Origin: Bacteroides sp. CAG:530
GTDB taxonomy: Bacteria > Bacteroidota > Bacteroidia > Bacteroidales > Bacteroidaceae
Assembly (NCBI GenBank): GCA_000434735.1
Contig: FR881281.1
Span: 12,777 to 76,776 of the forward strand
Direction: 5' to 3'
Length of the DNA: 64,000 nt
Shown here piece by piece: positions 3,891 to 57,209 of the stretch (position 1 is the stretch's first letter; each line of letters starts with the position of its first letter). The position numbers and the translations under genes are program-made. A model generated the notes under the pieces. It saw nothing but the letters and a program-made list of their open reading frames with translations, was not told where the DNA came from and searched no databases.

Positions 3891-3970
3891 CCTAGCCTAA
3901 GTATATATATTCTTAAGCTAAGTTTATATATACCTAGGCTAAGTTTATATATCTTTAGGCTAAAGATAGA
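3891..3970. repeat. ~3.5 tandem copies of a 22-bp unit (consensus YTAGGCTAAGTTTATATAT + 2-3 nt), locus A
   Basis: Direct reading gives cctagcctaagtatatatattc / ttaagctaagtttatatatacc / taggctaagtttatatatctt / taggctaaagataga. It lies in the 640-bp divergent intergenic region between the RND adaptor and maeB. It is homologous to the array at 42200..42292. Confidence 0.7.
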
Positions 3971-23412: not shown

Positions 23413-23516
23413 CAAAGTTGTCTTACTTCGACCGAAGTAAGCACGTTGACCGTTCGATGTGAACGTTTACTTCGGTCGAAGTAAGCGTTCACATCGGTCG
23501 AAGTAAGACGACTTTG
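23413..23516. repeat. 104-bp complex nested palindromic element built on CTTACTTCG/CGAAGTAAG 9-mers
   Basis: The outer 22-bp arms (caaagttgtcttacttcgaccg / cggtcgaagtaagacgactttg) match with 1 mismatch. Inner palindromes are cttacttcgaccgaagtaag and gatgtgaacg..tttacttcggtcgaagtaag..cgttcacatc. It lies between the metF stop and the upstream gene start. Confidence 0.65.
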
Positions 23517-31896: not shown

Positions 31897-31975
31897 AATT
31901 CCTTTCGTAGAAGGAATTGATTCCTCTCGCAAAAGGAACGCATTCCTATCTAAGAAGGAATAACGCCAAATAAGC

Positions 31976-37158: not shown

Positions 37159-37980
37159 GTGAAGCAAGATAAAGAACCAGCCGAGCTAACCTTTTGGGAC
37201 CATTTAGACGAACTGCGCGGCACGTTATTCCGCATAGTAATAGTAGTCGTAGGGTGTATGCTTTTGGCTTTTTGTTTCAAAGACGAACTGTTCGGCATTG
37301 TTTTGGCTCCTAAACATGCCGATTTTTATATCTATCGATTGTTTGATTATATAGGCAGACTTTTTGGCATTTCGGATTTAGAGGCAGAAAACTTTAACGT
37401 GCATCTTATAAACACGCAATTATCCGGACAGTTTATGATGCACATGAGCGTGTCTTTTTACGCCGGAATCATATTAGCGTCTCCTTATATAATATACCAA
37501 CTGTTTAGGTTCGTATCGCCGGCTTTATACGAGAATGAGCGAAAATACTCTTTGCGTGTTGTAACGTGGGGATATTTGCTGTTCATCTTGGGAGTACTAT
37601 TTTGCTACTTCATCGTATTTCCGTTTACGTTCCGCTTCTTGGCGTTGTATCAAGTAAGTTCGGAGGTAGAGAACACCATTCAGCTTGCTTCGTACCTTGA
37701 TACACTAACCATGCTTAGCCTAATGATGGGCATTTTATTCGAAATACCGATATTGTCGTGGCTGTTTGCCAAATTAGGTTTTCTTACAGCTAAGTTCATG
37801 ACAACCTATCGCAAGCACGCCTTAGTCATATCAATGATTGCGGCGGCCATCATCACTCCTACTAGCGATGCGTTCACGATGCTATTGGTTACATTACCGA
37901 TTACAGCCCTTTACGAAGCAAGTATTATCATAGTAAGACATACTAACCCGCAAAAGAAGTTGTCCGAAGATAAAGAATAA
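37159..37980 (+). CDS. tatC: twin-arginine translocase subunit TatC (GTG start)
   Basis: 273 aa, 6 TM, TatC-like; starts 11 nt after tatA. Confidence 0.85.
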   Translation: MKQDKEPAELTFWDHLDELRGTLFRIVIVVVGCMLLAFCFKDELFGIVLAPKHADFYIYRLFDYIGRLFGISDLEAENFNVHLINTQLSGQFMMHMSVSFYAGIILASPYIIYQLFRFVSPALYENERKYSLRVVTWGYLLFILGVLFCYFIVFPFTFRFLALYQVSSEVENTIQLASYLDTLTMLSLMMGILFEIPILSWLFAKLGFLTAKFMTTYRKHALVISMIAAAIITPTSDAFTMLLVTLPITALYEASIIIVRHTNPQKKLSEDKE

Positions 37981-37984
37981 ATTT

Positions 37985-40900
37985 ATGAAAAACCGTATCT
38001 ATACCATCGTATTACTGACCTTGTGCTTTTGCCTTAATATAACAATGGCACAAGGTGCTGGTCATTCTAAAGATAACCTGCATTTTTCTCATATCTCTAT
38101 CAATAACGGGTTGTCGCAGAACACTATATTCGCCATCGCGCAAGATGCCAAAGGCTATATGTGGTTTGCTACGCACAATGGGGTCAACAAATACGATGGA
38201 TACGATTTTACTATCTATCAGAATAATCCGCAAGATTCTACCACCATAGCAAACGATATTATCCGCACGTTGGTGACCGACGACAAAGGACGCGTATGGA
38301 TAGGAACCGAAAGCGGTTTATCGTATTACAACGAAGAAAGAGACATCTTTGAGAATTTCTACTTAAAGAATAGCAAAACAGCTACGGTTTCAAGCATAGT
38401 CACGCTGTCCGACTCGCAACTATTGGTCAACGCCGAGGGACAACTTTACAGTTTCGACGCTAAGAGCAAGGCATTCTCACAACAGACATTGCCTACCGAC
38501 CTGCTGCAACTCAACGTAACCGCCCTTTACCGTACCGCACAAAGCATATATATAGGTACTGCCGAAAACGGAGTTTTCGTGTGGGATTATAAGGGCAAGC
38601 GCATTCAGCGTTTAAGCCTCAGCATAAGACACCGCATACAAGCACTTTTGCTGCAAAATCCAAGCACGCTATGGATTGCGACTGAGGGAGAAGGCTTATA
38701 CCGACTCAACCCACAAACCGGAGAGCAGAAACATTATGTACATTCGTACAATGAAGGCGATATCAGCTCAAACTTTATTCGTGCCTTATCAGTTGATACA
38801 AAAGGTTATTTATGGATAGGTACTTTCAATGACCTTAACGTGTATCATGAAAGTAGCGATAAGTTCACTGCCTACACACATAACCCCATCGACCCAGAAA
38901 GTTTGAGTCAGCGTTCGGTGCGCTGCATCTACAAGGATTCGCAGGGAGGTATGTGGCTCGGCACGTACTTTGGCGGTATTAACTATTATCACCCGCTAAA
39001 GAACCGCTTCCGAAATATACAGCGACTAACATATAAGAAGCAACTGAACGACAATGTGGTAAGTTGCATAGTAGAAGATAGTAAGCACAACTTATATATA
39101 GGTACCAACGATGGCGGCGTAAACTACTACGACCCGCATACCGATGAGGTTACTTACTATACTTTCAACAACAAACAAAGTCCCGTAGTAGAATCTAACA
39201 ACGTGAAATGTATCTCTATCGACGAGAAAAGGAACGTAGTGTACGTAGGTACCCACGCTGGAGGAATAAAGATAATACACCGTGCCGGAGGCAACATAGA
39301 ACATTGCTATAGCGAGAATAATCCATCGGCAACACAGAACATTTATTCACTGCTGCCGTATAAGGATAACATGCTATGGGCAGGAACATTAAACGGACTG
39401 TACCTGTTCAATAAAGACAGCAAAACATTTACGGCTGTAGATAAAGATGTTAACGGCAATGAGATTCCAGACGAACAGATTAACATCTTATTCCAGGATT
39501 CAAAGCGAAGACTTTGGATTGGAGGTAAAAACAGTCTGACTGTATATAAGATAACAGACAACGGACTGAAAGCCATAAAGATTTCTATCGACGGCTTCAA
39601 CAACATTGTAGCGGTACAAGACATTCACGAAGATGAAGAACATTGTCTATGGTTCTGTACGCAATGGGGACTTTACAAGCTGGATAGAGAAAAGCACGTT
39701 ATCACTCATTACACCACCAAAAACGGACTGCCCAACAATGTGATATACGGCATAGAAGAAGACTCTTACCATCATCTTTGGCTCAATACCAACCACGGAT
39801 TGAGTTGCCTCAACCCATCGAACGGACAATTCAGAAACTTCTCCGTAAACGACGGACTGCAGAGTAACCAGTTTAATCCGCACTCGCACTGCCGCACTGC
39901 CGACGGAAGCTTATACTTCGGAGGCATAAACGGAATTTCAACATTCCGTCCAGAACTGCTTACGTTCAACCCATTTACGCCAAAGCCGTTCTTTACTAAA
40001 TTCTACCTATATAATAAGGAGGTACATCCGGGCGACGAAAGCGGAATACTTAGCAAGAACATTTCAGATACTGATTTCAGATACTGAAAAGATTGTCTTG
40101 AAGCCGTCGCAACGCGCCTTTACACTGGAGTTTGTAGTAACCAACTTCATATCCGGACAGCATAACACGTTCTCTTATCAGCTGGAAGGTTATGACAAGG
40201 AATGGTATTACCTTAAAGGACATCAGCGAAGCGTATCGTACTCTAACCTGCCCGCAGGAACGTACCGTTTCCTAGTGAAAGCTGCCAATAACGACGGACA
40301 TTGGAGCAGCGAACCCGCCATGCTTACCATCAAGGTGCTGCCCGTATGGTATGCTACTTGGTGGGCGATACTGTTATTCGTTATCATAACGGTAGCGTTG
40401 ATGGCTATTATATTACGTTATTTCTGGGAACGGAAGTCGATGGAAGCACGCCTGAAACTTGAACAGAAAGAGAAATTGCACCAAGAAGAGATAGCACAGA
40501 TGAAGATGCGTTTCTTCATCAACATTTCGCATGAGTTGCGTACTCCGCTTACTCTTATCTTGGCGCCGATACAAGATATGCTGGCTAAAACTACCGATAA
40601 ATGGATGAAAGAGCAGTTGAACTACGTAAACCGTAACGCCAATCGCTTGCTCAACCTTGTAAATCAGTTAATGGACTACAGAAGAGCTGAGCTGGGAGTG
40701 TTTAAGCTAAAGGTAGAGCATACATGTATATATAAGACAGTAAAAGAAAACTTCATGTTCTACGAAAAGTTGGCTCGTACCAAGAACTTGGAGTATACGT
40801 TAATTTCAGATATAGAAGATAAGGAATGCTATGCCGACCCTAAATACGTAGAGCTTATACTGAACAACTTGCTGTCTAACGCCTTTAAATATACCGAAAA

Positions 40901-42056
40901 AGGTAGTATCACTGTTCGCCTCACCATAAAGGACGACCAACTGCAGCTGGAAGTAAGCGATACAGGATGCGGTATAGAGCAAGACAAGCACAAGCGAATA
41001 TTCGAACGCTTCTATCAGCTTAAGAACAACTATGTAGGTAGCGGTATCGGACTCTCATTGGTAGAGCGTTTGGTGGAATTGCATCACGGACATATAGAAT
41101 TGGTAAGCGAAAAGGGCAAAGGTAGTATATTTACCATCTATCTGCCGCAGAACCCTAACGCATACGCCGAAAACGAATTCTATGGCAGCAGCGAAGATGC
41201 GGAACCAGAAGAAGTACACTCTACCAACTCTAAAGAGATGTATATCATAAACACCGAGAAAGACGACAACACCACAGAAGAAGATACCGACAATAAGAAA
41301 GGATGTATCCTTGTGGTAGAAGACAACGAAGAGATACGCCATTATCTATATAGCGGATTACAGCCCAACTTCTGCATAAAACAGGCAGCCAACGGTGCCG
41401 AAGCACTCGACATTCTGAAGGATACACAGGTAGATATCGTGATAACCGATGTCATGATGCCAGTAATGGATGGTATAAAACTATGTAAGCAGATAAAGCA
41501 GAACATTGTAACCAGCCATATACCTGTTATCATCCTTTCGGCTAAGACCGATGTGAACGATCAGATGCAGGCCATGCAGACTGGAGCCGATGACTACATA
41601 GCCAAGCCGTTCTCGCTTAGCGTGCTAATAGCCAAAGTGCAGAACCGCATGCGCACTCGTGCCCGCATGATAGAGCATTACGCAAAATCAGCCGAGGTAG
41701 ACCCTGAAAAGATAACCTTCAACGCTATGGACGAGAAGTTACTGAAACGCGCCGTCGAAGTAGTGAAGGCCAATATGGATAATCCAGAATTCTCTGCCGA
41801 AGAGTTTGCACGCAATATGAATATGAGTCGCTCTAACCTTCACCTGAAGTTGAAAGGCGTAACCGGAGAATCGGCTATAGAGTTCATACGCAAGATTCGT
41901 TTTAACGAAGCTTGCCGCTTGCTGCGCGAAGGACAATACAGTATTTCCGAGATAAGCAGCATGGTTGGTTTCAACACACCGTCATACTTCTCTACGGTAT
42001 TCAAGAAGTACATGGGTTGCTTGCCTACAGAATACGTTAAGAAAGGCAACCGATAA
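37985..42056 (+). pseudogene. hybrid two-component system sensor kinase/response regulator (HTCS; beta-propeller + Y_Y_Y + TM + HisKA/HATPase + REC + AraC-HTH), interrupted by a +1 frameshift caused by a 13-bp tandem duplication
   Basis: ORF 37985..40087 (700 aa) carries the periplasmic propeller repeats and ends NISDTDFRY*. ORF 40098..42056 (652 aa) starts in the +1 frame with Y_Y_Y, TM, HELRTPL, HATPase, REC (VVEDNEEIR...DVMMP) and the AraC HTH. Deleting one of the two ATTTCAGATACTG copies at 40061-40086 joins them as ...NISDTEKIVLKPSQRAFTLEF... It starts 4 nt after the tatC stop. Confidence 0.75.
40061..40086 (+). repeat. perfect 13-bp tandem duplication (ATTTCAGATACTG x2) inside the HTCS gene
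   Basis: The copies lie at 40061-40073 and 40074-40086. The length is not a multiple of 3, and the duplication creates TGA at 40085-40087. Confidence 0.9.
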
Positions 42057-42199: not shown

Positions 42200-42292
42200 C
42201 TATAAACTTAGCCTAAGAATATGTATACTTAGCCTAAGTTTATATATTCTTAGTTTAAGTTTTTATATACTTAGGCTAAGTTTATAGAATTC
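42200..42292. repeat. 4 copies (first inverted) of the 22-bp TTAGGCTAAGTTTATATAT unit, locus B
   Basis: Units are ctataaacttagcctaag (inverted), cttagcctaagtttatatattc, ttagtttaagtttttatatac and ttaggctaagtttatagaattc. The three direct units align copy-for-copy with 3891..3955 at roughly 85-90 % identity. It lies between the HTCS terminator and the PUL promoter. Confidence 0.7.
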
Positions 42293-42562: not shown

Positions 42563-44767
42563 ATGAATAAACTTCATCTCTGTCTCATCGCAGCGATGGC
42601 GCTTACCGCGTGCACTGAAGACGACGAGACTCTAAAGGGTTCAGGAGTGATAGAGGGTACTATCATGCCGACTGAAAAGCCCAATGATGTTATCACTGAA
42701 GGCATTTTTGAAAAGTTAAATCTCGACTACCCAGGGTTGGAAAAAGTGAAAGCTTACCACGAGGCTGGTCAAGATTATTACGCATGCTATGAATTGTTGC
42801 AGTACTATCGCAACCGTAGCAACGTAATCAACCCAAGCATCGACTTGATTAACACATCTTACTCTGCCGCAGAAAAAGCTATGGCCGACCAAGCTCTGCT
42901 GCATCAGTTCTATGTTCGCGGCTTTTCTGCCGACTTAGGCGCAGACAATAAGCAAGGAACTTCTGATGACACATTCTACAAATTCGAGAAGAAAGACGAA
43001 AACGGACAAACTGTTATCGACTGGGATTTGCAGGTAGAAGGAGTAACCAGCGCAGAATTCAAATATCAGCGTCACCGTTGGCAGTGGATGGAACCGCAGG
43101 CCAAGACATATCGCGTAACCAAAAACGAAGATTATATCAAGAATTGGATAGAGACCTACCAAAGCTGGATGAATACTTATCCATGCCCTAACGCAAAATT
43201 CGACGATAACGAAACTGATAAGAACTCAAACTATCAGTGGAAAGGACTGCAGACTGCCGAACGTTTGCTGTCGCAGCTTAACGTAATGCAGTACTATCTG
43301 CAATCTACCAACTTCACACCCGAATGGCTTTCTACATTCTTGATTTCTATAGCCGATCATGTAGAAATGATTCGCAAGAACTACTATCAGACTCCGGGCG
43401 ACAACATTCGCTTAAGCCAGATACAAGCCGTATTTACAGCAGGAGTATTGATGCCGGAATTTAAGAACGCCACAGAATGGACAAACGAAGCATCTACTAT
43501 GCTCGATACGGAAATAGGTTCTCAGTTCCTTGAAGACGGTGTACATGCCGATCTCGACCCGAGCTATCACATCGGTTCAGTAAGCAACTGCCTCAGCCTC
43601 TATTATCTGTTGTCGCTTAACGATAAGACAGATTTGCTGCCGGCTTCGTTCGTATCGAAGCTGAAAAACGCTACTAACTTCCTGAAAGACATAATCTATC
43701 CAAACTATACTATCGACAATTACAACGATACCCGTTCAGACAGATTAGGTAAGAGCATTCAGATTAAGAACTTCAAGAAATACAGCGAAATCTATCCAGA
43801 CGATGAAGAAATGAAGTACATGGCATACGAACGTGCCAAAGGCACTGTGCCTTCGTACACTACTAAAGCATATTCGGCAGCAGGTTACTACATGCTTCGT
43901 AGCGGTTGGACAGAAAACTCTACCATGATGGTACTGAAGAATAACTATAATCCTGAAGCTAAATGGCACTGCCAGCCGGATAATCAGACATTCAGCCTAT
44001 ACCGCAACGGACGTATATTCTTCCCCGATGCAGGATGTCATGGATACGAAGGTGACCCGTTACGCAAAGATTTCGCAGCGGCAGTAAACCACAACACTTT
44101 GACCGCATTGAGTAAAGACCCAGACGCAACTCACCGTAAAGGAAAGTTCCTTACCATGTATACAGAAAAAATGAACGGTGTAAATGTTGACGTTCTTTCT
44201 ACTCAGTTCGAGATGAAAGAAGGTTTGACTCACCGTCGTACAGTATTCTTCGTTAATAAGGCATTCTTCGTTATTGCCGATGAAGCATTTGGTGATGGAA
44301 ACAAAGACAAGGTGAACTTGAACTTCCACATGATTACAACTGATGAATGTCCTACAGTAGCCGATGCTGACGCTGACAAGAAAACAGCAGGACTCCACAC
44401 TACCTTTACCGACGGTAACAATATGGTATTGCGTTCTTTCTACGCTGAAGGCTCTACAACCGGAGCGCTTGAAGGTAAAATAGACAACAAGGAAACAGAA
44501 GTATGGAATAATACTGCTGATGCCATTTCTAAAGCAAGCGGAAAGCGTTTAGGCATGAAATTCAATGTTCGTAAGCCTATCAACGGAGCATCTCGCCTCA
44601 TCACTATCATCAAACCGATAGACGGAGCTTATGACGCAAACATGGAACTCGACGCTAAGTTTACCGACAACACGGAAGAGACACGCAATACGTTCCATGC
44701 CGACGGCGTGACACTGCAAGTTACAGTAGACGGCAAGACTTATAATTTGCAAGCAAAAATAAAATAA
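42563..44767 (+). CDS. heparinase III-family (PL12-like) polysaccharide lyase, lipoprotein
   Basis: 734 aa with a signal + lipobox (LTAC). It shares paralog-like blocks with the 53531 gene (LNLDYPGLEKVK, HRWQWM, WHCQPDN, HRRTVFFVN, FVIADEAFG), typical of heparinase II/III-like (alpha/alpha-toroid + beta-sandwich) lyases. Confidence 0.75.
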   Translation: MNKLHLCLIAAMALTACTEDDETLKGSGVIEGTIMPTEKPNDVITEGIFEKLNLDYPGLEKVKAYHEAGQDYYACYELLQYYRNRSNVINPSIDLINTSYSAAEKAMADQALLHQFYVRGFSADLGADNKQGTSDDTFYKFEKKDENGQTVIDWDLQVEGVTSAEFKYQRHRWQWMEPQAKTYRVTKNEDYIKNWIETYQSWMNTYPCPNAKFDDNETDKNSNYQWKGLQTAERLLSQLNVMQYYLQSTNFTPEWLSTFLISIADHVEMIRKNYYQTPGDNIRLSQIQAVFTAGVLMPEFKNATEWTNEASTMLDTEIGSQFLEDGVHADLDPSYHIGSVSNCLSLYYLLSLNDKTDLLPASFVSKLKNATNFLKDIIYPNYTIDNYNDTRSDRLGKSIQIKNFKKYSEIYPDDEEMKYMAYERAKGTVPSYTTKAYSAAGYYMLRSGWTENSTMMVLKNNYNPEAKWHCQPDNQTFSLYRNGRIFFPDAGCHGYEGDPLRKDFAAAVNHNTLTALSKDPDATHRKGKFLTMYTEKMNGVNVDVLSTQFEMKEGLTHRRTVFFVNKAFFVIADEAFGDGNKDKVNLNFHMITTDECPTVADADADKKTAGLHTTFTDGNNMVLRSFYAEGSTTGALEGKIDNKETEVWNNTADAISKASGKRLGMKFNVRKPINGASRLITIIKPIDGAYDANMELDAKFTDNTEETRNTFHADGVTLQVTVDGKTYNLQAKIK

Positions 44768-44792: not shown

Positions 44793-47045
44793 ATGAACGT
44801 AAGACACAACATCTTATCCCGATTTTTGGGAGTTTTGACGGTCATGGTATTCGCATTGCTGGGCATTACTTCATGCTCGGAAACAGAAACCACCGACAAA
44901 ACCGATTTTATTCTCTACTATACCAGCATGACCGATATAGGTCCTGGCATGAGTAGCGACATTGCACAACCCAGTTACAAGGGAGCCACACCTTCTGACT
45001 TCACTATCACAGGAGTTACTTTGGACGGACAGGCTTACACAGGCAACTTGTTCGAGATTAATCCTACTAGCGGAACAGTACACATAGAAAGCGATGAAAC
45101 AACCCCAGTAGGTGTTTATAAGATTTCTGTTTCGTGTGTAGCAGGTGGAAGCACTTTCACTTACAACGACATTATCAGTGTAAACTTCTTGAAGCGTGTG
45201 CCCGAAGGCATCACTGTTACTCCGGAAGCATTGGTTGCCGATTTCGCTGACATCATCGATGCCAACAGTACAGTAGAATTACCTACCGCACAGGTTACTA
45301 CAGAACAGAACCATATCTCTATTACAGGATATTCTATCTCAAGCGTTCGCTTAGGCGAGACTATCGTCGACAACAAGAAGAACCCGATGTTCGCTGTTTC
45401 TTCAGACGGAACAATCTCTATCGTTCGCGGCTCTAATGCTATCGAACCGGGACTTTACACTATCGACCTTAAGTTGAACACTGCCGTATCGGGTAGCGAC
45501 AGCGAAGAAGGTTTGTTCGCTAACGCACTTACTGTAAACGTAACTTCTAAGCCGTTGGCTTTGACTTACGCTACAGGTAAATTGGAAGAAGCTACAGAAG
45601 AATCGGGCAACACATCTTTCGTTAGCCAAGTTCCTACATTCAAGGGTTCTACAGACGGTATCGCTTATTCTATAGAAAGCGTTTCGCCAGCTTCAGACAA
45701 ATTCGTTATCGATGCCAAGACTGGCGTTATCTCTGTAGCCGAAGGTCACGGACTTAAGAGCGGCGAAAAATATGTTGTCTCTGTTCGCGTTAAGAACGAC
45801 TATAGCACAGAAGGTGTAGTATTCAACAACGTATTCACACTGAACGTAGTAGAATACATCGAGCCTATTTCTAACTTCGCTTACGAAATGACTCCTGTTA
45901 CAGAACAGGTAGAATTCGAAATTCCTGTAAAAGACGGATTCAAGGGTGCAGAACCTGTATTCGTATTTGAATCTATCTCTGCCGAAGATAAGAACATCGT
46001 ATCATTGGACGGAAAGACCGGAACAATCTCTGCTAAGAAAGGTCACAAACTGACTTTAGGAGAACACAAGTTCACCGTAAAAGCATCAAACGATAAGAAT
46101 AGCGAAACCGCAGAGTTAATTATCAATGTCACTGAAAACCCCAACAAGTTTACATACATCCGCTACGGAAACAACTTGGGATTGACTCCTGCCGAAAACT
46201 ACGCTAACCAGTTCAGACTGGCAGATAAGGAAGAATTCAACGGTAACGCAGAATTTAGCACTCCTGAAACCGACAGTAAAAAGACATTGACTTGGAGCGT
46301 AAGCGGAATTGACGTTGGTGGTACTTCAACTTGGAATAAAGTAAAAATTGACTCTAAAACTGGTAAATTAACTCTCAATGCTCTACCTAATGAACAAAAA
46401 TGTGTTGTAGTATTGGTAAAAGCTACTGCAGGTTCTGGCAAAAAGGCTTATTCTATAACAGTGCCAGTATTCTTCCACAACTCTAATGCTGATAAAACTA
46501 ATGGTAAGATAGAATACACCCCATTCGTTCTGCAAGTAAATCCAAAGAAGGGTGGACGTTCTGTTACTCCTACCATTACTAACACTATAGATATGAGCAA
46601 ATTTGTTTTGGATTTCAGACGTGACCCTATCTATTACAATATTAATGGAGAATATCAAGACGGCACCCCACTTGAATCGGGAGGTACGCAAAAACACACA
46701 AAAGGCTACTATAAACAGTCTCCATTTATGGAAGCCTTGTGGGTACAATGCGGAGCTGGATTAGGAGCCAAAGCCCCCATGGCTTACTTCGATGTAAAGG
46801 GCAATATAAGGGAAAATCATACAGATAAAACATTGGGTTATGTAGACAATGCAGACGGAGACAAGAAATTCTCAGTTGTAATAAACGCTAACCAATGGTG
46901 CCAACGTGCAGAAGATAGCCAGGATATATTAGCTTGGGCAAACGGTGTCGTCATAATGAGCATGACATATAGCGACAACGTCACTAATGTAAACAAAGGA
47001 ACAGAAGTAGGTCCTATCGTAATTTGGCTTGATACTAATTTTTAA
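44793..47045 (+). CDS. PUL-encoded surface lipoprotein, probable surface glycan-binding protein (SGBP)
   Basis: 750 aa with a signal + lipobox (ITSC). It has multiple Ig-like beta-sandwich repeats and no catalytic motifs. Its position next to susC/susD matches PUL SGBPs. Confidence 0.55.
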   Translation: MNVRHNILSRFLGVLTVMVFALLGITSCSETETTDKTDFILYYTSMTDIGPGMSSDIAQPSYKGATPSDFTITGVTLDGQAYTGNLFEINPTSGTVHIESDETTPVGVYKISVSCVAGGSTFTYNDIISVNFLKRVPEGITVTPEALVADFADIIDANSTVELPTAQVTTEQNHISITGYSISSVRLGETIVDNKKNPMFAVSSDGTISIVRGSNAIEPGLYTIDLKLNTAVSGSDSEEGLFANALTVNVTSKPLALTYATGKLEEATEESGNTSFVSQVPTFKGSTDGIAYSIESVSPASDKFVIDAKTGVISVAEGHGLKSGEKYVVSVRVKNDYSTEGVVFNNVFTLNVVEYIEPISNFAYEMTPVTEQVEFEIPVKDGFKGAEPVFVFESISAEDKNIVSLDGKTGTISAKKGHKLTLGEHKFTVKASNDKNSETAELIINVTENPNKFTYIRYGNNLGLTPAENYANQFRLADKEEFNGNAEFSTPETDSKKTLTWSVSGIDVGGTSTWNKVKIDSKTGKLTLNALPNEQKCVVVLVKATAGSGKKAYSITVPVFFHNSNADKTNGKIEYTPFVLQVNPKKGGRSVTPTITNTIDMSKFVLDFRRDPIYYNINGEYQDGTPLESGGTQKHTKGYYKQSPFMEALWVQCGAGLGAKAPMAYFDVKGNIRENHTDKTLGYVDNADGDKKFSVVINANQWCQRAEDSQDILAWANGVVIMSMTYSDNVTNVNKGTEVGPIVIWLDTNF

Positions 47046-47073: not shown

Positions 47074-50000
47074 ATGCATCAATACACTATAAAATCGGCA
47101 AGCAAAAGAGGGTTCATCACCCTCCTTGCCTTGATGATGTCTGTATGTCTGTACGCTCAGCGAATAACACTGAACGGTGTTGTTATAGACGAGACAGACC
47201 AACCGCTTATCGGTGCTACCGTACAAGTTGTGGGTACACCCGATGGTACCATTACCGATTTCGACGGTAACTTCTCTCTGAAAGTTAAGAAAGGAGCAAA
47301 GATTACTTTCTCTTACGTAGGATACTTAAGCAAAACCTTGACTTTCCAAGGACAGAACAAAGTAACCGTAAAACTGGAACCGGACAACAAGACTTTGGAA
47401 GAAGTAGTAGTTGTAGGTTACGGCGCTATGAAACGTAGCGACTTGACAGGATCTCTTTCATCAGTAGGTGGAAAAGACATCGAGGGTTATAAAACAAGTA
47501 ACTTGGCGGGAGCGTTGAGCGGCCAGGTTGCTGGTGTTCAGATTACCCAGACCGATGGTGCGCCGGGTTCTGGCTTCAACATCAACATCCGTGGTGTAGG
47601 TACCTTGACTGGTGATAATGCACCTCTTTATATAGTAGACGGTTTCCAGGTAGACGATATCAGCTATCTGTCTGACTCGGATATCGAAGACATCTCTGTA
47701 TTGAAAGATGCTTCTTCGGCTGCTATCTACGGTTCTCGCGCTGCAAACGGTGTTATCTTGATCTCTACCAAGCAGGGTAAGGAAAGCAAGCCTATCATTA
47801 CTTATAAGGGCTCTGCCACTTACCGTAGCATCGCTAAGAAACTCAATTTGCTTAGCCCGTACGAATTCGTAAAACTGCAGGGTGAAATCAACGATAAATA
47901 CTTGACCTCTTACTTCCAGGAAGGAAATGACTCTGAAGGCAACCCATACCGTTATCAATCGCTCGACGACTTTATCGGTGTAGAAGGTATCGACTGGCAA
48001 GACCAGACTTTCAATCCTACTTGGTCTACCGATCATAACGTAAGCATCATCGGTGGTACTGACAAGTCTAAATATTCAGGCTCTCTGTCGCGCTACGTAG
48101 AAGAAGGTATCTTCAACAACAGTGGTTTCGACAAGACTACCGGAAAGCTTCGTTATACTAACAAGCTCACTAAGAAGGTATCATTGGATGTTACATTCAA
48201 CTATGCCCAGACTAACCGTAAAGGTGTAGGTACATCGGCCGACTCTGGTCGTTTCAACATGTTGGCACAGATTATCAGTGCACGTCCTACCGCAGGTAAC
48301 CGCATGACTGATGACGAATTGCTGAACGCTTTCATCGACCCAACTATGTTGGAAGACGGAAACGATAATATCGCACAGGTAAACCCTGTATTGCAGACTG
48401 AAAACGTTACTAACAAGAAACGCTCTGAATATTGGTCGGCTAACGGTGCTGTAAACTGGGAAATCAGAAAAGGATTGACTTTCCGTACTGCTGCCACTTA
48501 CAACACTACCAACACCAGAACAGACATATTCTACTCTCAGAAGACAAAAGAAGCATACCGTAACGGTGGTAAGCCTTATGGTTCAAGCCAGATGCAACGC
48601 GATTCACGCTGGGTAAACAGTAACACCTTGACTTGGAAACAGAAGATTAAAAAACATCAGTACGATGTAATGTTGGGTCATGAAGTTTCACACAAGACTA
48701 CAGAGTACTTATACGGTCAGGCAATGGATTTCCCATTCGATAACCTGGGCAACAATAACTTAGGTCTTGGAGCTACTCCGAGCAAAGTAAATTCTGATTA
48801 TAGCGACAACTCGCTGCTTTCATTCTTTGCACGTGCCAACTACAACTACGACAACCGCTACTTGTTCACTGCAACAATGCGTGCCGATGGTTCTACAGTA
48901 TTCTCTAAGAACAATAAATGGGGATACTTCCCTTCATTCTCTGCCGCATGGCGTGTTTCTGAAGAAAAGTTCATGAAGAACTTGGATTGGATTTCTAACA
49001 TGAAGTTGCGTTTAGGATGGGGTCTTGTAGGTAACGACCGTATCAAGAACTACTTGTCGCTTGATCTTTATACAGACTCTAAATACGGTGTAGGAAACCA
49101 AATAGTAACTGTATTGACTCCGAAGCAGCTGCGTAACAGTGACTTGAAGTGGGAGGCATCTTCTACTGTCAACGCAGGTATAGACTTGGGCTTCTTCGCT
49201 AACCGCTTGAGCTTGACTGCCGACTTCTTTATCAAGAACACCAAAGACTTGCTGTTAGCACAGTCGTTGGCACACGTAACAGGTTTCGATTCTCAGTGGC
49301 AAAACGTAGGTAAGATTCAGAATAGAGGTATTGAATTAAGTATCAACAGCACAAACATTCAGTCTAAGAACTTCACTTGGCAAACCAACTTCAACATTTC
49401 GTTCATCCATAACGAATTGAAATCGTTGGCATCGGGAGTAGACGCAATGTATGCACGTTCAGGATTCGACGGCAACTTTACTTCTTACGACTACATCGCA
49501 AAAGTAGGCGAATCACTGGGCTTAATATACGGTTATGAATTCGACGGTATCTACCAATACTCTGATTTCAACCAGACTCCTGACGGAAAATGGATATTGA
49601 AAGAAGGTGTAGTAAATAACGCCGGATACAAAACTAAAAATACAAACTTGGAACCGGGATGCGTGAAATACAAAGACCAGGACGGCGACGGTGAAATCAC
49701 TACTAAAGACCGTACGGTAATTGGTAACACACTGCCTAAGTGGTATGGTGGTATCACCAACAATTTCAACTTCAAGGGTGTAGACTTCAGCTTCATGTTC
49801 CAGTTTAACTACGGTAACGATTTATACAACGCAACCCGTCTGTACAGTACTCAGACTCGTTTGGGCCGTCGTAACATGATGGCGGAAGTAGCAGACCGTT
49901 GGTCCGCCTACAAACGCATCTAACCTCGTTCCGAAGACAAACGGTTACATCACCAACGAAGTATATTCACGTTTCGTAGAAGACGGCTCATTCCTCCGTT

Positions 50001-50230
50001 TGAAGAACGTAACTTTGGGATATACCATTCCGCAGAAACTTACTAAGAAGTTCTATGTACAGAAACTCCGCGTATACGGAAGCGCACAGAACTTGTTCTG
50101 CCTGAGCAAATATAGCGGTTACGACCCAGAAGTAAGTACAGCTGCAAACAACCCGATGACACCGGGACTTGACTGGGGTGCATATCCTAAGAGCCGTATC
50201 TTCACAATAGGACTTGATTTACAATTCTAA
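47074..50230 (+). pseudogene. SusC-like TonB-dependent transporter, apparent +1 frameshift near 49900-49907
   Basis: ORF 47074..49923 (949 aa) carries the carboxypeptidase-regulatory-like, plug and barrel domains and ends ...ADRWSAYKRI*. ORF 50000..50230 is the canonical SusC C-terminus (...GLDWGAYPKSRIFTIGLDLQF), and its frame is open from 49892. Reading W-S in frame 1 and then PTNASNLVPKTNGYITNEVYSRFVEDGSFLRLKNVTLGYTIPQ in frame 2 restores a normal SusC; one extra nucleotide (around g49906) explains it. Confidence 0.7.
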
Positions 50231-50245
50231 TAAAAACGAAACAGT

Positions 50246-51964
50246 ATGAAAAGACATAAATTATATACCTTATTACTGGCAGGACTGGTTACTCTGGGTT
50301 CTACTTCGTGCAGCAACTTCTTGGAAGAAGAAGATAAAGTAGAAGTAGAAAAGAAGAACTACCTGACCAACGCCGACGAAGCACAGAACGTACTTTTAGG
50401 CGTATACCGCACTAACGTGAGAGAAGCGATGTATGGCCGCTACTTGTCTATCCACTTCAGCTTGGGTACCGATATGGAACAAGTAGAAGGTAGCAATACG
50501 GAAAACTTCCGTATTGTTCCTACCAACGCTTATCCCGCTACACAATCGGAAGTACAGCAGGCATGGCAATCGCTGTATATGGGAATTTATAACGCAAACG
50601 ATTTCTTGGAACAGCTGTCACTGCACATCGACAGCTACAGCCAGTCGGATAAAAAGAAAGCATTGATCTATGCAGCCGAAGCACGTTCATTGAGAGCTCT
50701 TTACTACTTCGAGTTAGTTCGCCGTTGGAACCGTGTGCCTTTGTTCACTAATACAGAACAATCTCACCAGAAACCGGAAACATTTGTACAGGCAGAGCCG
50801 GCTGAAGTATATAAGTTCATAGAAGAAGACTTGAAATATGCTGCCGAAATATTGCCGTATGCAACAGACGACGATGTACGTAGCGACAATTCTTACCGTT
50901 TCTCTAAGGGTGCCGCATTAGGATTGCTGGCTAAGGTATACGCTACATGGGCAGGATATCCTGTAAACGATACATCAAAATGGAAAGACGCTGCCGAAAC
51001 TGCCGCACAGCTTATCAACTCTGGTAAGCATGACTTGCTGCCCGACTTCGAGACATTGTGGGAAAACACCGCCAACGGCGTATGGGATCCTACAGAAAGT
51101 CTTATCGAAATCTCATTCTACTCGCCTACAGCTGCCGGTGGCGCAAACGACCCTTGCGGATACATAGGCAAATGGAACGGTGTACCGGCTTCGCAGATCT
51201 CGGGTACACGCGGAAGCTGTAAAGGTAACGTGAAGGTAATCTATCCGTTCTCATATAAATGGCAGCAGATAGCAGAGCAGAAAGGCGACAAGCGTTGGGC
51301 TTTGTCAATCTCTAACTTCCAGTACAAACCTACCAAGACATTCTTCGGTAAAGCTGGACAGTATACTATAGGTGATGAAAAAGTAACGCTTACTGCAGAA
51401 GAAGCAAGTCTTAATCCTGATGTAGACCAGAAGAACAAGCAATACTTCACTCCTGCCAAATGGGATTTGGAGAAATATACTAACGCTGCCAACAAGCTGA
51501 TAAACGACGACCGCTCTAACACTAACTGGTATGTATTGCGCTACGCCGATGTCTTACTTATCTATGCAGAAGCGCTGAACGAATGGAAGGGACATCCTAC
51601 TAACGAAGCATACGCCGCTATCAATAAGGTTCGTCGTCGTGGATTCGGTAACCCGAGCAACACATCCGTTTGCGACTTGCCTGCCGCTCTTAGCCAGGAA
51701 GCATTCCGCCAGGCAGTACGTGATGAGCGTGCATACGAATTGGCATTCGAAGGACACCGTCGTCTTGACTTGGTGCGTTGGGGTATCTATTACCAGACAA
51801 TCACCAAAACTTACAAAGACCTCCTGAACTGGTGGTCGAGCGACAACGAAAACTTCAACTATGCCATTTACCAATACACCATCGAAGGCAAGCATGAGCT
51901 GATGCCTATCCCGCAACGCGACATGGACTTGTGTCCGCAATTCAAGCAGAACCCGAAGTGGTAA
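50246..51964 (+). CDS. SusD/RagB-family outer-membrane glycan-binding lipoprotein
   Basis: 572 aa with a lipobox (STSC) and TPR-like SusD architecture. It lies immediately downstream of susC. Confidence 0.9.
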   Translation: MKRHKLYTLLLAGLVTLGSTSCSNFLEEEDKVEVEKKNYLTNADEAQNVLLGVYRTNVREAMYGRYLSIHFSLGTDMEQVEGSNTENFRIVPTNAYPATQSEVQQAWQSLYMGIYNANDFLEQLSLHIDSYSQSDKKKALIYAAEARSLRALYYFELVRRWNRVPLFTNTEQSHQKPETFVQAEPAEVYKFIEEDLKYAAEILPYATDDDVRSDNSYRFSKGAALGLLAKVYATWAGYPVNDTSKWKDAAETAAQLINSGKHDLLPDFETLWENTANGVWDPTESLIEISFYSPTAAGGANDPCGYIGKWNGVPASQISGTRGSCKGNVKVIYPFSYKWQQIAEQKGDKRWALSISNFQYKPTKTFFGKAGQYTIGDEKVTLTAEEASLNPDVDQKNKQYFTPAKWDLEKYTNAANKLINDDRSNTNWYVLRYADVLLIYAEALNEWKGHPTNEAYAAINKVRRRGFGNPSNTSVCDLPAALSQEAFRQAVRDERAYELAFEGHRRLDLVRWGIYYQTITKTYKDLLNWWSSDNENFNYAIYQYTIEGKHELMPIPQRDMDLCPQFKQNPKW

Positions 51965-52211: not shown

Positions 52212-53534
52212 ATGAAAAAACTGATTGCATTTGCTGCGGCAGCCATTGCTCTTGCCTCATGCCAGACTCAACCAAAAGAAGATTACAGCTGGATTAAAAA
52301 CGGACTTGATGTAGCACAACAGCAACTGATGCTTGCTGCTCACGAAGCTGAAGGAACAGGTAAATTGCCTCGTACTACTTATCAGAGTTACGACATGAAC
52401 TTCCTCTGCGAACAGTTGGAAAGAGATTCTGCAACATTTAAAGACTCATTGCGTCAGTCTGCTCCTGCCGAAAAAGTAGGAAAGATGAAACTCTGCACAG
52501 TGAAAGACTGGACAAGCGGATTCTTCCCAGGTTCTTTATGGTATGCATACGAATTGACAGGAAATGACTCGTTGAAAACAGAGGCTATAGAATATACTAA
52601 CTTGCTGAACCCAGTACGCTATTATAGAGGTACTCACGACTTGGGCTTCATGATTAACTGCAGCTATGGTAACGCACTTCGTCTTACCAAGAACGATACA
52701 ATTGCTGCAGTAATGCACGAAACCGCCGATAACCTCTGCAGCCGATTCAACGAAGGTATCGGTTGTATCCGTTCATGGGACTTCGGTACATGGAATTTCC
52801 CGGTTATCATCGACAACATGATGAACCTCGACTTGCTCTTCACTGTAAGCAAACTTACAAACGACGATAAATATAAAAACGTTGCTATCACCCACGCTAA
52901 CACTACCATGAAAAATCACTTCCGTCCGGACTACACTTCATGGCACGTAGTAAGCTATAACAATGACGGTACAGTAGAACGCAAACAGACTTTCCAAGGA
53001 AAGAACGACGACTCTGCATGGAGCCGCGGCCAGGGATGGGGCGTATACGGATATACAGCTTGCTTCCGTGAAACAAACGATTCTACTTACTTGAAATTCG
53101 CATGCAATATTGCAGATATGATTATGAGCCGTGTTAAGACAGACGACGCTATTCCTTACTGGGATTATATGGCTCCTGTAACTCCTGAAACTCCGCGCGA
53201 CGCATCGGCTGCAGCTGTTACAGCTTCTGCCATGTTAGAACTTAGCACATTCGTTGCCGACGGACAGAAATACTTTGACTACGCAGAAAAGATTCTGAAG
53301 AGTTTGTCGAGCGACGCTTATTTGGCTAAGCCAGGCACAAACGGCGGCTTCATCTTGATGCACTCTACAGGTTCTTTGCCTAACGGAAGTGAAATCGATG
53401 TTCCTTTGAACTATGCTGACTACTACTACTTGGAAGCTCTGAAGAGATACATGGATTTAAAGCACATTTCATACAAAATACATGGATTTGAAGCACATTT
53501 CATACAAAGACCTTTAATAATAAGTAATTCATGA
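52212..53534 (+). CDS. glycoside hydrolase family 88 (unsaturated glucuronyl hydrolase), lipoprotein; C-terminus altered by a 31-bp tandem duplication
   Basis: 440 aa with a lipobox (LASC) and GH88 alpha6/alpha6 motifs (SGFFPGSLWYAYELTG, RGQGWGVYGYTA). The last ~20 codons are read through a duplicated segment, and the stop overlaps the next gene's ATG (ATGA). Confidence 0.8.
   Translation: MKKLIAFAAAAIALASCQTQPKEDYSWIKNGLDVAQQQLMLAAHEAEGTGKLPRTTYQSYDMNFLCEQLERDSATFKDSLRQSAPAEKVGKMKLCTVKDWTSGFFPGSLWYAYELTGNDSLKTEAIEYTNLLNPVRYYRGTHDLGFMINCSYGNALRLTKNDTIAAVMHETADNLCSRFNEGIGCIRSWDFGTWNFPVIIDNMMNLDLLFTVSKLTNDDKYKNVAITHANTTMKNHFRPDYTSWHVVSYNNDGTVERKQTFQGKNDDSAWSRGQGWGVYGYTACFRETNDSTYLKFACNIADMIMSRVKTDDAIPYWDYMAPVTPETPRDASAAAVTASAMLELSTFVADGQKYFDYAEKILKSLSSDAYLAKPGTNGGFILMHSTGSLPNGSEIDVPLNYADYYYLEALKRYMDLKHISYKIHGFEAHFIQRPLIISNS
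53447..53508 (+). repeat. 31-bp tandem duplication (atacatggattt[a/g]aagcacatttcatacaaa x2, 30/31 identical) at the 3-prime end of the GH88 gene
   Basis: The copies lie at 53447-53477 and 53478-53508. 31 nt gives a +1 frame change, so the tail reads ...RYMDLKHISYKIHGFEAHFIQRPLIISNS* instead of ...RYMDLKHISYKDL*. Confidence 0.9.
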
Positions 53535-55528
53535 AATTAAAACATATAGCATTAAGCATAGTAGCTTGTATCGGTATGGCACAAGCTACTGCACAAGAGC
53601 TTAAAACGGAAGTTTTCTCTTTGCTGAACCTTAATTATCCAGGTTTGGAGAAAGTTAAGTCTTTGCACGAATCAGGAAAAGACAAAGATGCTGCACAGGC
53701 ATTGCTCGATTATTACCGCGCACGTACCAACATCAAGACTCCTGATATTAACCTGAATAAGATTACTATCGGTAAGGAAGAACAGAAGTGGGCCGACGAC
53801 GCTATGGAGCATACATTCTTCGTACATAAAGGCTACCAGCCATCGTTCAACTACGGAAAGGACATCAACTGGAAATACTGGCCTGTACAAGATAACGAAT
53901 TGCGTTGGCAGCTTCACCGTCACAAATGGTTTACTCCGATGGGTAAAGCATATCGCGTGTCGGGCGACGAGAAGTATGCTAAAGAATGGGCCGCTCAATA
54001 TATCGACTGGATTAAGAAAAACCCGTTGGTATCTATCGACAAGAAAGAATATGAACTGACAAGCAACGAAACCCTGAAAGGCGATGTAGAAAACATGCGT
54101 TTCGCTTGGCGTCCGCTGGAAGTTAGTAACCGCCTGCAAGACCAGACTACACAGTTCCAGTTGTTCTTGCCGTCTCCTTCGTTCACTCCGGAATTCCTTA
54201 CCGAGTTCCTTGTAAACTACTACAAGCACGCTGTTCATATCCTGAACAACTACTCAGACCAAGGAAACCACTTGCTGTTCGAAGCACAGCGTATCATCTA
54301 CGCCGGAACATTCTTCCCAGAATTCAAGGACGCTTCTGCATGGAGACAGAGCGGTATCGGTATCTTGAACCGCGAAATCAAAGTTCAGGTTTACGATGAC
54401 GGTGGACAGTTCGAGCTCGACCCGCACTATCACTTGGCATCAATCAACATTTTCTGCAAGGCTTTGTACATAGCAGATATGAACGGATTCCGCAATGATT
54501 TCCCGCAGAGCTACATGGATACAGTAGAAAACATGATTATGTTCTACCTGAACATCTGTTTCCCCGACTATACCAATCCTTGCTTCAGCGACGCTAAGCT
54601 GACAACAAAGAGAGAAATGGTCAAGAACTACAAAGAATGGAGCAAATTGTTCCCAAAGAATAAGGCTATCTTATACTTCGCAAGCGAAGGCAAAAAAGGA
54701 GAACTTCCTGCATACTTGTCTAAAGGTTTCTTGAAATCAGGTTTCTTTGTATTCAGAAACTCTTGGGGTGAAGACGCAACTCAGATGGTAGTTAAGGCTG
54801 GTCCGAAAGCATTCTGGCACTGTCAGCCCGATAACGGTACATTCGAGATGTGGTTCAACGGAAAGAATCTGTTCCCCGACTCTGGTTCTTATGTATACGC
54901 CGGAAGCAAGGAAGTAAACGAAGAACGTAATTGGTTCCGCCAAACTGCGGTTCACAACACACTTACTCTGAACAACAAGAATCTTGACCAGACAAATTCT
55001 AAGACTCTGTTGTGGCAGCCCGAAGGCGATATTCAGACACTTGTTACTGAAAACCCGAGCTACAAGAACCTTACTCACCGTCGTAGCATCTTCTTTGTAA
55101 ACAACACATATTTCGTGATTGTAGACGAAGCTATCGGTGCAGCAAAAGGCTTTGTAAACTTGCACTACCAAATGCCGAAAGGTAAGATTGCCAATAGTCG
55201 TGAAGACATGACTTTCATTACCGAGTTTGAAAGCGGAAGCAACATGAAGTTGCAGTGCTTCGGTCCTGACGGCATGAGCATGAAGAAAGAAGAAGGTTGG
55301 GCATCTACAGCTTACCGCAAGAAATTCAAACGTATGAATGTTTCATTCAACGTTAAGAAAGAAAACGATGCGGTACGTTACATCACCATCATCTATCCGA
55401 TGAAAGACAGCGCAGATGCGCCTGCTATGTCGGCTAAGTTCAAGACTAAGAAATTCGACGGTAAGAACTTGGAAGTTGAAGTAAAAGTAGGTGGCAAGAA
55501 ACAATCTTTGAAATATACCTTGCAATAA
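53531..55528 (+). CDS. heparinase III (PL12-family heparin/heparan-sulfate lyase)
   Basis: 665 aa with a signal peptide. Its size and motifs match HepIII-type enzymes (LNLNYPGLEKVK, HRHKWF, WHCQPDN, HRRSIFFVN). Confidence 0.8.
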   Translation: MKLKHIALSIVACIGMAQATAQELKTEVFSLLNLNYPGLEKVKSLHESGKDKDAAQALLDYYRARTNIKTPDINLNKITIGKEEQKWADDAMEHTFFVHKGYQPSFNYGKDINWKYWPVQDNELRWQLHRHKWFTPMGKAYRVSGDEKYAKEWAAQYIDWIKKNPLVSIDKKEYELTSNETLKGDVENMRFAWRPLEVSNRLQDQTTQFQLFLPSPSFTPEFLTEFLVNYYKHAVHILNNYSDQGNHLLFEAQRIIYAGTFFPEFKDASAWRQSGIGILNREIKVQVYDDGGQFELDPHYHLASINIFCKALYIADMNGFRNDFPQSYMDTVENMIMFYLNICFPDYTNPCFSDAKLTTKREMVKNYKEWSKLFPKNKAILYFASEGKKGELPAYLSKGFLKSGFFVFRNSWGEDATQMVVKAGPKAFWHCQPDNGTFEMWFNGKNLFPDSGSYVYAGSKEVNEERNWFRQTAVHNTLTLNNKNLDQTNSKTLLWQPEGDIQTLVTENPSYKNLTHRRSIFFVNNTYFVIVDEAIGAAKGFVNLHYQMPKGKIANSREDMTFITEFESGSNMKLQCFGPDGMSMKKEEGWASTAYRKKFKRMNVSFNVKKENDAVRYITIIYPMKDSADAPAMSAKFKTKKFDGKNLEVEVKVGGKKQSLKYTLQ

Positions 55529-55604: not shown

Positions 55605-57209
55605 ATGAAAACAGTATCTCAAGCAGCATTGTGCCTTCCTTTAGTGGCACTGAATTTAACAAGCTGCGCAACCCAAAAAAAAGAAGAGCCGAAACAGCCG
55701 AACATTATTTTTATAATGACCGACGACCATACCACTCAGGCTATGTCTTGCTACGGAGGAAATCTTATCCAGACTCCAAACATGGACCGCATCGCCAATG
55801 AAGGTATCCGTTTCGACAACTGCTATGCAGTAAACGCCCTTTCAGGTCCGTCAAGAGCCTGCGTACTGACAGGTAAATTCAGCCACATGAATGGCTTTAC
55901 AGACAACGCTTGTAAATTCAACGGCGATCAGCAGACATTCCCGAAACTATTGCAGAAAGCAGGATACGAAACTTCTATCATCGGAAAATGGCATCTTATC
56001 TCTGAACCACAAGGATTCGACTACTGGAGTGTCTTAAGCGGACAAGAAGAACAAGGTGACTACTACGATCCTGACTTCTGGGAAAACGGTAAACACATAA
56101 CAGAAAAAGGTTATGTAACCGATATTATCACAGACAAGGCGATAAAATGGATGGAAGGACGCGACAAGAGCAAACCGTTCTGCATGATGTTCCACGAAAA
56201 AGCGCCTCATCGCGACTGGATGCCGGCTCCACGTCATTTAGGTATATTCAACGACGTTACTTTCCCCGAACCAGAGAATCTGTTCGATGACTACAAGGGA
56301 AGACAAGCTGCAGCCGAACAAGACATGTCGATTGCCAAGACTCTGAGAGAAGACTGGGACTTGAAACTTCTTACTCACGACGAAATAGTAAACGGAAAGT
56401 CAAGACTGCGCGATGTCTATATGCGTATGCCGGAAGATGTTCAGCACAAATGGGATTCTGTTTATGCACCACGTATCGCAGAATATCGCAAAGGCAACTT
56501 GAAAGGCAAAGAATTGATAAGCTGGAAATATCAGCAATACATGCGCGATTATCTGGCAACCGTTCTTTCTGTAGACGAAAACATCGGACGATTGCTTGAT
56601 TATCTGAGCGAAACAAATCAGTTGGACAACACTATCATAGTTTATACTTCCGACCAAGGCTTCTTCTTGGGAGAACACGGATGGTTCGACAAGCGATTCA
56701 TGTACGAAGAATGCCAGCGTATGCCGCTTATCATACGTTACCCCAAAGCTATTAAGGCAGGTTCTGTAAGCTCGGCTATCAGTATGAACGTTGACTTCGC
56801 TCCTACATTCCTCGACTTTGCAGGTGTTGATATACCGGAAGATATTCAGGGTAAATCATTGAAGCCTATCCTCGAAAACGAAGGAAAGACTCCTGCCGAT
56901 TGGCGCAAGGCTGCCTACTATCATTATTATGAATATCCGGCAGAACACTCAGTTAAACGTCACTACGGAATACGCACACAAGACTTTAAGTTGATTCATT
57001 TCTATAATGACATCGATGTTTGGGAAATGTACGACATGAAGAAAGATCCGCATGAGATGAACAACATCTTTGGCAACCCTGACTATGCCGACAAGCAGCA
57101 AGAACTGATGCAGCTGTTGAAAGAGACTCAGGAACAATATAAAGATACCGACCCCGACGAAAAAGAAAAAGTACTTTTCAAGGGCGACCGTAGATATATG
57201 AAACGATAA
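55605..57209 (+). CDS. S1-family sulfatase, Ser-type (formylglycine motif S-G-P-S-R)
   Basis: 534 aa with a lipobox (LTSC). The sulfatase signature is NALSGPSRACVLTG, and the metal-binding motifs are IFIMTDDHT and GKWHL. Confidence 0.9.
   Translation: MKTVSQAALCLPLVALNLTSCATQKKEEPKQPNIIFIMTDDHTTQAMSCYGGNLIQTPNMDRIANEGIRFDNCYAVNALSGPSRACVLTGKFSHMNGFTDNACKFNGDQQTFPKLLQKAGYETSIIGKWHLISEPQGFDYWSVLSGQEEQGDYYDPDFWENGKHITEKGYVTDIITDKAIKWMEGRDKSKPFCMMFHEKAPHRDWMPAPRHLGIFNDVTFPEPENLFDDYKGRQAAAEQDMSIAKTLREDWDLKLLTHDEIVNGKSRLRDVYMRMPEDVQHKWDSVYAPRIAEYRKGNLKGKELISWKYQQYMRDYLATVLSVDENIGRLLDYLSETNQLDNTIIVYTSDQGFFLGEHGWFDKRFMYEECQRMPLIIRYPKAIKAGSVSSAISMNVDFAPTFLDFAGVDIPEDIQGKSLKPILENEGKTPADWRKAAYYHYYEYPAEHSVKRHYGIRTQDFKLIHFYNDIDVWEMYDMKKDPHEMNNIFGNPDYADKQQELMQLLKETQEQYKDTDPDEKEKVLFKGDRRYMKR

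Follow-up and report, generated by a model that had tools for sequence, protein, structure and literature searches.

A 13-bp tandem duplication in the regulator gene and a frameshift in susC point to recent loss of a heparin/heparan sulfate locus in one lineage of Bacteroides sp. CAG:530

The stretch of DNA considered here (hereafter the window) comprises 64,000 nucleotides of Bacteroides sp. CAG:530 and contains a polysaccharide utilization locus (PUL) for heparin and heparan sulfate (HS), which is headed by the gene of a hybrid two-component system (HTCS) regulator orthologous to BT4663 of Bacteroides thetaiotaomicron. This gene is cut into two open reading frames (ORFs) by a perfect 13-bp tandem duplication that is present in the DNA of the organism, specific to its lineage and recent, and the susC gene of the same locus carries a separate frameshift. 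Both lesions point to an ordinary, recent loss of the function of the heparin/HS locus in a single strain lineage, a reading that is given a probability of about 0.85 when the variant in which the loss was favoured by selection is counted with it.

The unit ATTTCAGATACTG fills positions 40061-40073 of the forward strand and again 40074-40086, and Tandem Repeats Finder returns a run of period 13 that reaches from 40061 to 40087 (2.1 copies, 100% match). Since this run is one base longer than two units, the ancestral unit was flanked by a 1-nt 'A' microhomology. No other tandem duplication in the window is perfect and has a unit of more than 8 nt, and about 64000 x 4^-13 = 1e-3 chance doublings of a 13-mer are expected over this length. 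The 13 additional nucleotides shift the reading frame by +1, and the second copy together with the following A forms a TGA at 40085-40087, at which the N-terminal ORF (37985-40087, 700 aa) terminates in SKNISDTDFRY. When one copy is removed in silico, a single protein of 1352 aa without internal stops is obtained, reading ...SKNISDTEKIVLKPSQRAFTLEF... through the site. An earlier note made from this DNA had described the perfect duplication, the +1 shift, the TGA and the resulting products of 700 + 652 aa, as well as the continuous protein left after dropping one copy, and all of this is borne out by the sequence. Two candidate roles of the duplicated segment were rejected on inspection: a promoter newly made by the duplication, as no Bacteroides -7 motif (TAnnTTTG) was seen in the duplicated sequence by eye, with no dedicated test, and a hairpin-driven hotspot, as the stem has only 3 bp (CAG/CTG), again with no dedicated test.

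The deposited assembly is a short-read metagenome-assembled genome (MAG), and the reassembled scaffold carries a Nielsen-2014 sample label. At least one tandem duplication of this MAG is missing elsewhere, namely a 31-bp duplication at 53447-53508 with one A/G mismatch between its copies, which lies at the 3' end of the GH88 gene and extends its ORF from 423 to 440 aa. This duplication, which served as a control, and an extra ACT at 53419-53421 are both absent from the two same-strain reassemblies that cover the region (L044 and L045), which is best explained by a bubble artefact of the MAG assembly or by a minor variant. This precedent lends some substance to the idea that the 13-bp duplication, too, arose in sequencing or assembly and does not exist in the organism, an idea that is nevertheless extremely improbable. 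The identical 26-mer is found in all six contigs of the same strain that were fetched from other assemblies (L001-L006; 99.88-100% identity to the window), which comprise SPAdes NODE contigs and a reassembly of the Nielsen-2014 sample SAMEA2042285 (ERZ28620375). The 700-aa product is found on contigs of ERZ1311359 and ERZ501277, and the 652-aa product on contigs of ERZ1311300, ERZ501283 and ERZ1310036. Moreover, the Logan assembly of SRR29904083, a run with a far later accession number and seemingly unrelated to the others, encodes the identical 700-aa product (a match at the protein level only), and a length of 13 bp matches no k-mer overlap length. Since the reassemblies expose the discrepancy at 53447-53508 yet keep the 13-bp duplication, the latter is judged to be real. 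Thus, the view that it is no technical error stands, and the assembly artefact named beforehand as the outcome that would count against it is contradicted by the recurrence of the duplication in independent assemblies.

In relatives, the gene runs through the same site without interruption. The cluster of this HTCS at 90% identity has 921 members, and among the members listed all measure 1352-1353 aa apart from the 700-aa and 652-aa products of this strain and a fragment at a contig end. Twelve full-length cluster sequences were read across the site and all are unbroken, 11 of them as ...SKNISDTEKIVLKPSQRAFTLEF..., with the core residues ...NISDTEKIVLKP... at the junction, and P0131 as ...SKNISDTENIVLKPSQ..., with the core variant ...NISDTENIVLKP.... 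At the DNA level, a single copy is present in eight intact conspecific loci (L007-L011 and the JGI contigs L012-L014), whose DNA identity to the window is 96-98%. Distant orthologues (54-67% identity, including that of B. thetaiotaomicron) are single proteins of ~1350 aa, and tblastn among the GTDB species representatives, where the matches were orthologues of at most 57% identity and the representative of the species itself was not among them, gave matches in the genomes of other species that are unbroken over residues 1-1349. In the JGI metagenomes, a collection in which the species is rare, the 26-mer of the duplication junction had no match, and a gapped pattern that admits 0-26 inserted bases retrieved three contigs, all with a single copy. 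One further conspecific allele (P0002/L056) is continuous at the site and carries a separate deletion of 522 nt elsewhere in the HTCS. The comparison of orthologues proposed in the earlier note therefore gives no example of a gene naturally divided into sensor and regulator at this point.

The repaired 1352-aa reading contains, in this order, Reg_prop, Y_Y_Y, a transmembrane (TM) helix, HisKA, HATPase_c, Response_reg and HTH_18/AraC (Pfam). Its residues 7-787 match the sequence of the BT4663 sensor-domain structures 4A2L/4A2M (E=3.9e-273), and the identity to the B. thetaiotaomicron orthologues of BT4663 is 57% over the full length. Pfam domains, the 4A2L match and the neighbouring genes agree in assigning the gene to the HTCS of a heparin/HS PUL, as had been proposed from the sequence alone. 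The domain set of BT4663-type regulators and the position next to the PUL are both found here, and the single polypeptide is not; since the TGA at 40085-40087 splits the gene, it represents a disrupted member of the HTCS family, i.e., a pseudogene. By orthology to BT4663, unsaturated HS disaccharides would be the expected inducers of the locus in this species.

The break falls between residues 696 and 697, 20 aa upstream of the Pfam match to Y_Y_Y (716-781). Its placement ahead of Y_Y_Y in the earlier note thus holds with respect to the Pfam match, but not with respect to the fold predicted by AlphaFold for residues 560-800 of the intact allele P0001 (16-sequence alignment; mean pLDDT 79, and 85-90 near the break), which was used in place of a discarded single-sequence prediction of aa 620-800 (pLDDT 41.6). 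In this model, the C-terminal beta-sandwich opens with strand 668-675 and the break is located just ahead of the second strand (698-701), i.e., within the Y_Y_Y fold rather than at the border of a domain. Because it separates strands 1 and 2 of the predicted sandwich, neither fragment is expected to hold a whole Y_Y_Y domain. The N-terminal fragment would correspond to a periplasmic propeller without membrane anchor or output domain. In turn, the C-terminal fragment has no signal sequence, its earliest possible start is a TTG 11 nt past the stop, and no ATG or GTG precedes its TM region.

It could be argued that the split gene still works, either as a two-piece system, through re-initiation of a constitutive C-terminal fragment, or through ribosomes that shift by +1 at UAC-UGA-A and produce a full-length protein into which DFRY is inserted. 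The downstream ORF does retain all cytoplasmic signalling domains, the TTG lies close to the stop, and a ribosome that slipped by +1 at the stop would regain the frame at the cost of only four additional residues. However, this possibility is highly improbable in view of the unsplit orthologues, of the predicted incompleteness of Y_Y_Y in both pieces and of the absence of a signal sequence for the periplasmic part of the C-terminal fragment. With regard to recoding, orthologues are read in one frame, neither an X XXY YYZ nor a known +1 motif is present near 40074-40087, and, to judge from the codons involved, tRNA-Tyr could not re-pair in the +1 frame. Moreover, in HTCS regulators an interaction between domains prevents DNA binding as long as the receiver is not phosphorylated (PMC11253607); since the output is auto-inhibited in this way, a fragment without the sensor would be expected to remain silent even if it were produced. 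Finally, with a truncated SusC, induction would not bring back uptake.

This truncation is the second lesion, which the earlier reader had missed. Alignment with L041/L043 reveals a 1-nt insertion in susC, an extra C at 49904/49905 (GGTCGCC to GGTCCGCC), which leads to a stop at 49921-49923 and to a SusC of 949 aa versus 1051 aa in intact strains, with the last ~100 residues of the barrel removed. Because the 3' end of susC is out of frame, an odd gap of 323 nt precedes susD, versus 16 nt in intact strains. When the extra C is deleted in silico, a SusC of 1051 aa ending in FTIGLDLQF is recovered. At least 10 contigs, drawn from 8 assemblies (ERR321078 of PRJEB4336 among them), encode the 949-aa SusC, and this recurrence indicates that the insertion is real. 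The cluster of SusC comprises 612 members. No usable example was obtained among other truncated SusC alleles, as P0144 (762 aa) breaks ~100 nt from a contig end, and P0142 and P0150 seem to be cut by contig ends. In the conspecific contig L057 (10001-12289), SusC leaves the family after residue 748, ~100 nt from the contig end, and the HTCS is intact (1352 aa); the divergence could be due to an insertion in susC or to a chimeric contig end.

The lesion in susC also bears on the second interpretation offered in the earlier note, according to which the duplication is a reversible slippage switch, with a 13-bp unit that often toggles between one and two copies and thereby turns the heparin locus ON or OFF. 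Slipped-strand mispairing can delete perfect tandem duplications exactly, and the genes of the locus besides those of the HTCS and SusC are intact in the window. Nevertheless, a switch is very improbable and this interpretation is not retained. There is no multi-unit repeat tract, and no variation in copy number is seen on one strain background at the assembly level: the six fetched contigs of the lineage all have exactly two copies, none has three, and every other fetched strain has one. Neither the repaired HTCS (with G330 or S330) nor the repaired SusC has an exact match in a collection of 15 billion proteins in which the broken forms are present, and the duplication has persisted through the diversification of the lineage described below. 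Since susC is separately frameshifted, reverting the 13-bp duplication alone would not yield an ON state.

With regard to age, the substitutions private to the window, relative to all intact strains, amount to 37:8 (synonymous:nonsynonymous) in the HTCS gene, 15:2 in susC and 7:2 in the PL12 gene, and the ratios for HTCS and SusC resemble those of strains in which these genes are intact. The gene of the surface glycan-binding protein (SGBP), with 11:10, evolves fast in every strain. As private substitutions are mostly synonymous, the lineage has evolved mostly under purifying selection, and thus both lesions are young. An ORF that is continuous in relatives, a lesion that is real and little neutral decay are the marks of a recent frameshift pseudogene, and it is the very recent pseudogenization also put forward in the earlier note that finds support here.

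Variation among the contigs that carry the duplication adds to this picture. Within the genes of the locus, these contigs differ at 13 point variants, of which 10 are nonsynonymous and three synonymous, and at all these sites the window has the base shared by intact strains wherever they cover it. Two in-frame deletions occur as well, of 21 nt in PL12 and of 6 nt in the HTCS gene at GG codons, whereas the ~38 kb housekeeping flank of the same assemblies exhibits one synonymous change, one intergenic single-nucleotide variant and one intergenic indel. The HTCS deletion affects 38971-38976 (codons 330-331, a YFGG propeller motif), a site without variation among intact strains and BT4663. Here, the carriers have either G (window, L001, L002), A, which results in G330S (the high-coverage reassembly L003/L044, and ERZ1311300, L004), or the 6-nt deletion (L005). 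The duplication has been retained while the lineage varied at 38972 (G/A), 40750 and 46611, which suggests that it was inherited during diversification. In ERZ501283 and ERZ1310036 (L046, L047), a G>T at window position 46233 converts SGBP codon 481 into a stop (480 + 252 aa), which could be a true third lesion or an error, given a coverage of 1.4-1.9x and the fact that the two assemblies may share reads. The proportions of 10:3 in the locus versus 0:1 in the flank are suggestive of relaxed selection after inactivation, on contigs with 1.4-2.4x coverage, chimeric ends and probably shared reads. The ends of some low-coverage SPAdes contigs diverge sharply from the window over a few hundred bases, as in L052 (1-373, window 6886-7146), L053 (window 14073-14355) and L054 (window 18485-18520); they seem to have been joined chimerically to sequence of a different strain or species and are unfit for variant calls.

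BT4663 senses unsaturated heparin/HS disaccharides in the periplasm and activates the adjacent PUL (PMC9067506). In the orthologue considered here, an error of replication slippage would have doubled 13 bp within the gene, and the +1 frameshift would end translation after residue 700, within the last periplasmic domain, severing the ligand-binding propellers from the membrane helix, the kinase, the receiver and the DNA-binding domains. Since the sensor would be cut off from the output domains, the signal could not reach the promoter and the locus would stay uninduced. The 1-nt insertion would, in addition, deprive the SusC outer-membrane transporter of its last ~100 residues. Together, the two lesions would mean that the activities of regulator and transporter are lost, that the heparin/HS locus has recently ceased to function and that its decay is beginning.

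Several points weigh against this reading. The predicted loss of function is derived from domain architecture, and precise reversion of a perfect tandem duplication is possible in principle. The comparison covers assemblies, and a minority population with a single copy may exist within the samples; the assemblies in ENA may represent separate runs of one or few individuals. Furthermore, the excess of disruptive variants comes from contigs of 1.4-2.4x coverage and could partly reflect sequencing error.

The cause of the loss is a separate matter. Inactivation may have been selected in the host, because of a saved cost or shifted glycan priorities, an explanation that differs in cause only from the ordinary loss outlined above and is unlikely, albeit tenable. 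Two independent lesions are present in one locus, and HTCS genes, that for heparin/HS included, are reported to be hotspots of mutation when B. thetaiotaomicron lives in mice, where the loss of some HTCSs improves colonisation (bioRxiv 10.1101/2025.06.24.661302). Moreover, a second strain (L056, from the Logan assembly of SRR31240045) has an HTCS of 1178 aa, from which a 522-nt in-frame deletion takes out HisKA and HATPase. This deletion lies between the near-identical 11-mers AACCGTAACGC and AACCCTAACGC (positions 5078-5088 of L056, corresponding to window 40629-41161), and the rest of the PUL is intact, including a SusC of 1051 aa. Judging from its domain content, the same regulator has been knocked out naturally, and independently, in L056. 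However, the sample is tiny, and drift predicts two lesions equally well if an initial one had already silenced the locus. The broader proposition is that human hosts repeatedly select for inactivation of the heparin/HS locus of this species, with independent lineages losing the regulator through different small rearrangements, here a 13-bp duplication and in L056 a repeat-mediated loss of 522 nt from the kinase core; it is speculative and improbable. If it were true, a revertible duplication would let the lineage regain the locus when host glycans are worth eating.

The genes of the locus are compiled in Table 1. Upstream of the HTCS gene lie ruvA, tatA and tatC, and tatC (37159-37984 region) stops 4 nt ahead of the HTCS start. 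In the related species represented by P0003-P0005 (64-67% identity), gene callers give proteins of 1615-1628 aa in which TatC (PF00902) is fused to the HTCS, reflecting either a true fusion or the loss of a stop codon in those genomes.

Table 1. Features of the heparin/HS locus in the window (positions count from the first nucleotide of the window).
Feature	Position	Strand	Product and state	Basis
HTCS N-fragment	37985-40087	+	700 aa, deposited as CDA76080.1; signal/anchor, Reg_prop beta-propeller sensor, first Y_Y_Y strand, tail DFRY and stop	
HTCS C-fragment	40098-42056	+	652 aa, deposited as CDA76082.1; rest of Y_Y_Y, TM helix, HisKA, HATPase_c, receiver, HTH_AraC	
PL12 heparinase	42563-44767	+	734 aa, intact; also 734 aa in intact strains	Pfam
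BT4661-like SGBP	44793-47045	+	750 aa, intact; 752 aa in intact strains	Pfam
SusC-like TonB-dependent transporter	47074-49923	+	949 aa, truncated; deposited as CDA76087.1	
SusC 3' out-of-frame remnant	49924-50229	+		Alignment with intact strains
SusD	50246-51964	+		Pfam
GH88	52212-53534	+		Pfam
PL12 (second)	53531-55528	+		Pfam
Sulfatase	55605-57209	+		Pfam
542-aa ORF	57236-58864	+	Part of locus	
ROK kinase	58866-59819	+		Pfam
MFS transporter	59774-61090	+		Pfam
DUF4962/heparinase-C lyase	61116-63611	+		Pfam

Short repeats of other kinds also occur in the window. A 21-bp unit (TATATACTTAGCCTAAGTTTA) is repeated ~4x at 42201-42286, between the HTCS gene and the first PL12 gene, and its reverse complement ~3.4x at 3893-3963; several low-coverage contigs stop inside the array at 42.2 kb. 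Two more intergenic arrays, at 23423-23507 and 31898-31961, have periods of 22 bp with the units TTACTTCGGTCGAAGTAAGCGT and ATTCCTATCGAAGAAGGAATGC, each of them partly palindromic-looking.

In physiological terms, the strain is predicted to be unable to sense heparin/HS or to import it via this locus despite a full set of enzymes and, as a consequence, surveys of gene content that count PULs would wrongly call it a degrader. The case also adds a natural, human-derived example to the experiments in which HTCS regulators are frequent targets of mutation, and it shows that independent reassemblies can separate genuine small duplications from artefacts in old MAGs.

The closest known system is the BT4663 HTCS of the B. 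thetaiotaomicron PUL BT4652-BT4675 (structures 4A2L/4A2M), with which the repaired regulator shares the order of domains. The gene content of the window locus matches that of the heparin/HS PUL BT4652-BT4663 (PMC9067506), and the neighbours that both regulators have in common include PL12, a BT4661-like SGBP, SusC, SusD, GH88, PL12, a sulfatase, ROK and MFS. Unlike BT4663, the gene described here is cut into two ORFs by a 13-bp duplication, belongs to an uncultured species and has tatA/tatC directly upstream. The HTCS mutations reported in mice (bioRxiv 10.1101/2025.06.24.661302) likewise hit PUL regulators, that for heparin/HS included. However, those were mostly point polymorphisms that arose under mono-colonisation, whereas the frameshift considered here is fixed, or carried by the majority, in a strain of the human gut and is accompanied by a frameshift in the transporter. 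ON/OFF heterogeneity of a glycan locus would also result from phase variation as in certain PULs and surface loci of Bacteroides (invertible promoters and shufflons, e.g., BT2260-BT2268), but these rely on site-specific recombinases and inverted repeats, in contrast to a simple duplication within a coding sequence. Replication slippage is known to produce frameshifts by short tandem duplication, e.g., at the CTGG hotspot of lacI. The duplication in the HTCS gene resembles this type of slippage in its short head-to-tail unit, its minimal flanking homology, the frameshift and its precise revertibility in principle, and it differs from the lacI hotspot in that other strains have no pre-existing repeat at the site and, hence, no hotspot tract. 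The split regulator gene is, in sum, a pseudogene confined to one strain, in a system that is well understood, and the event is of a known kind that calls for no new mechanism.

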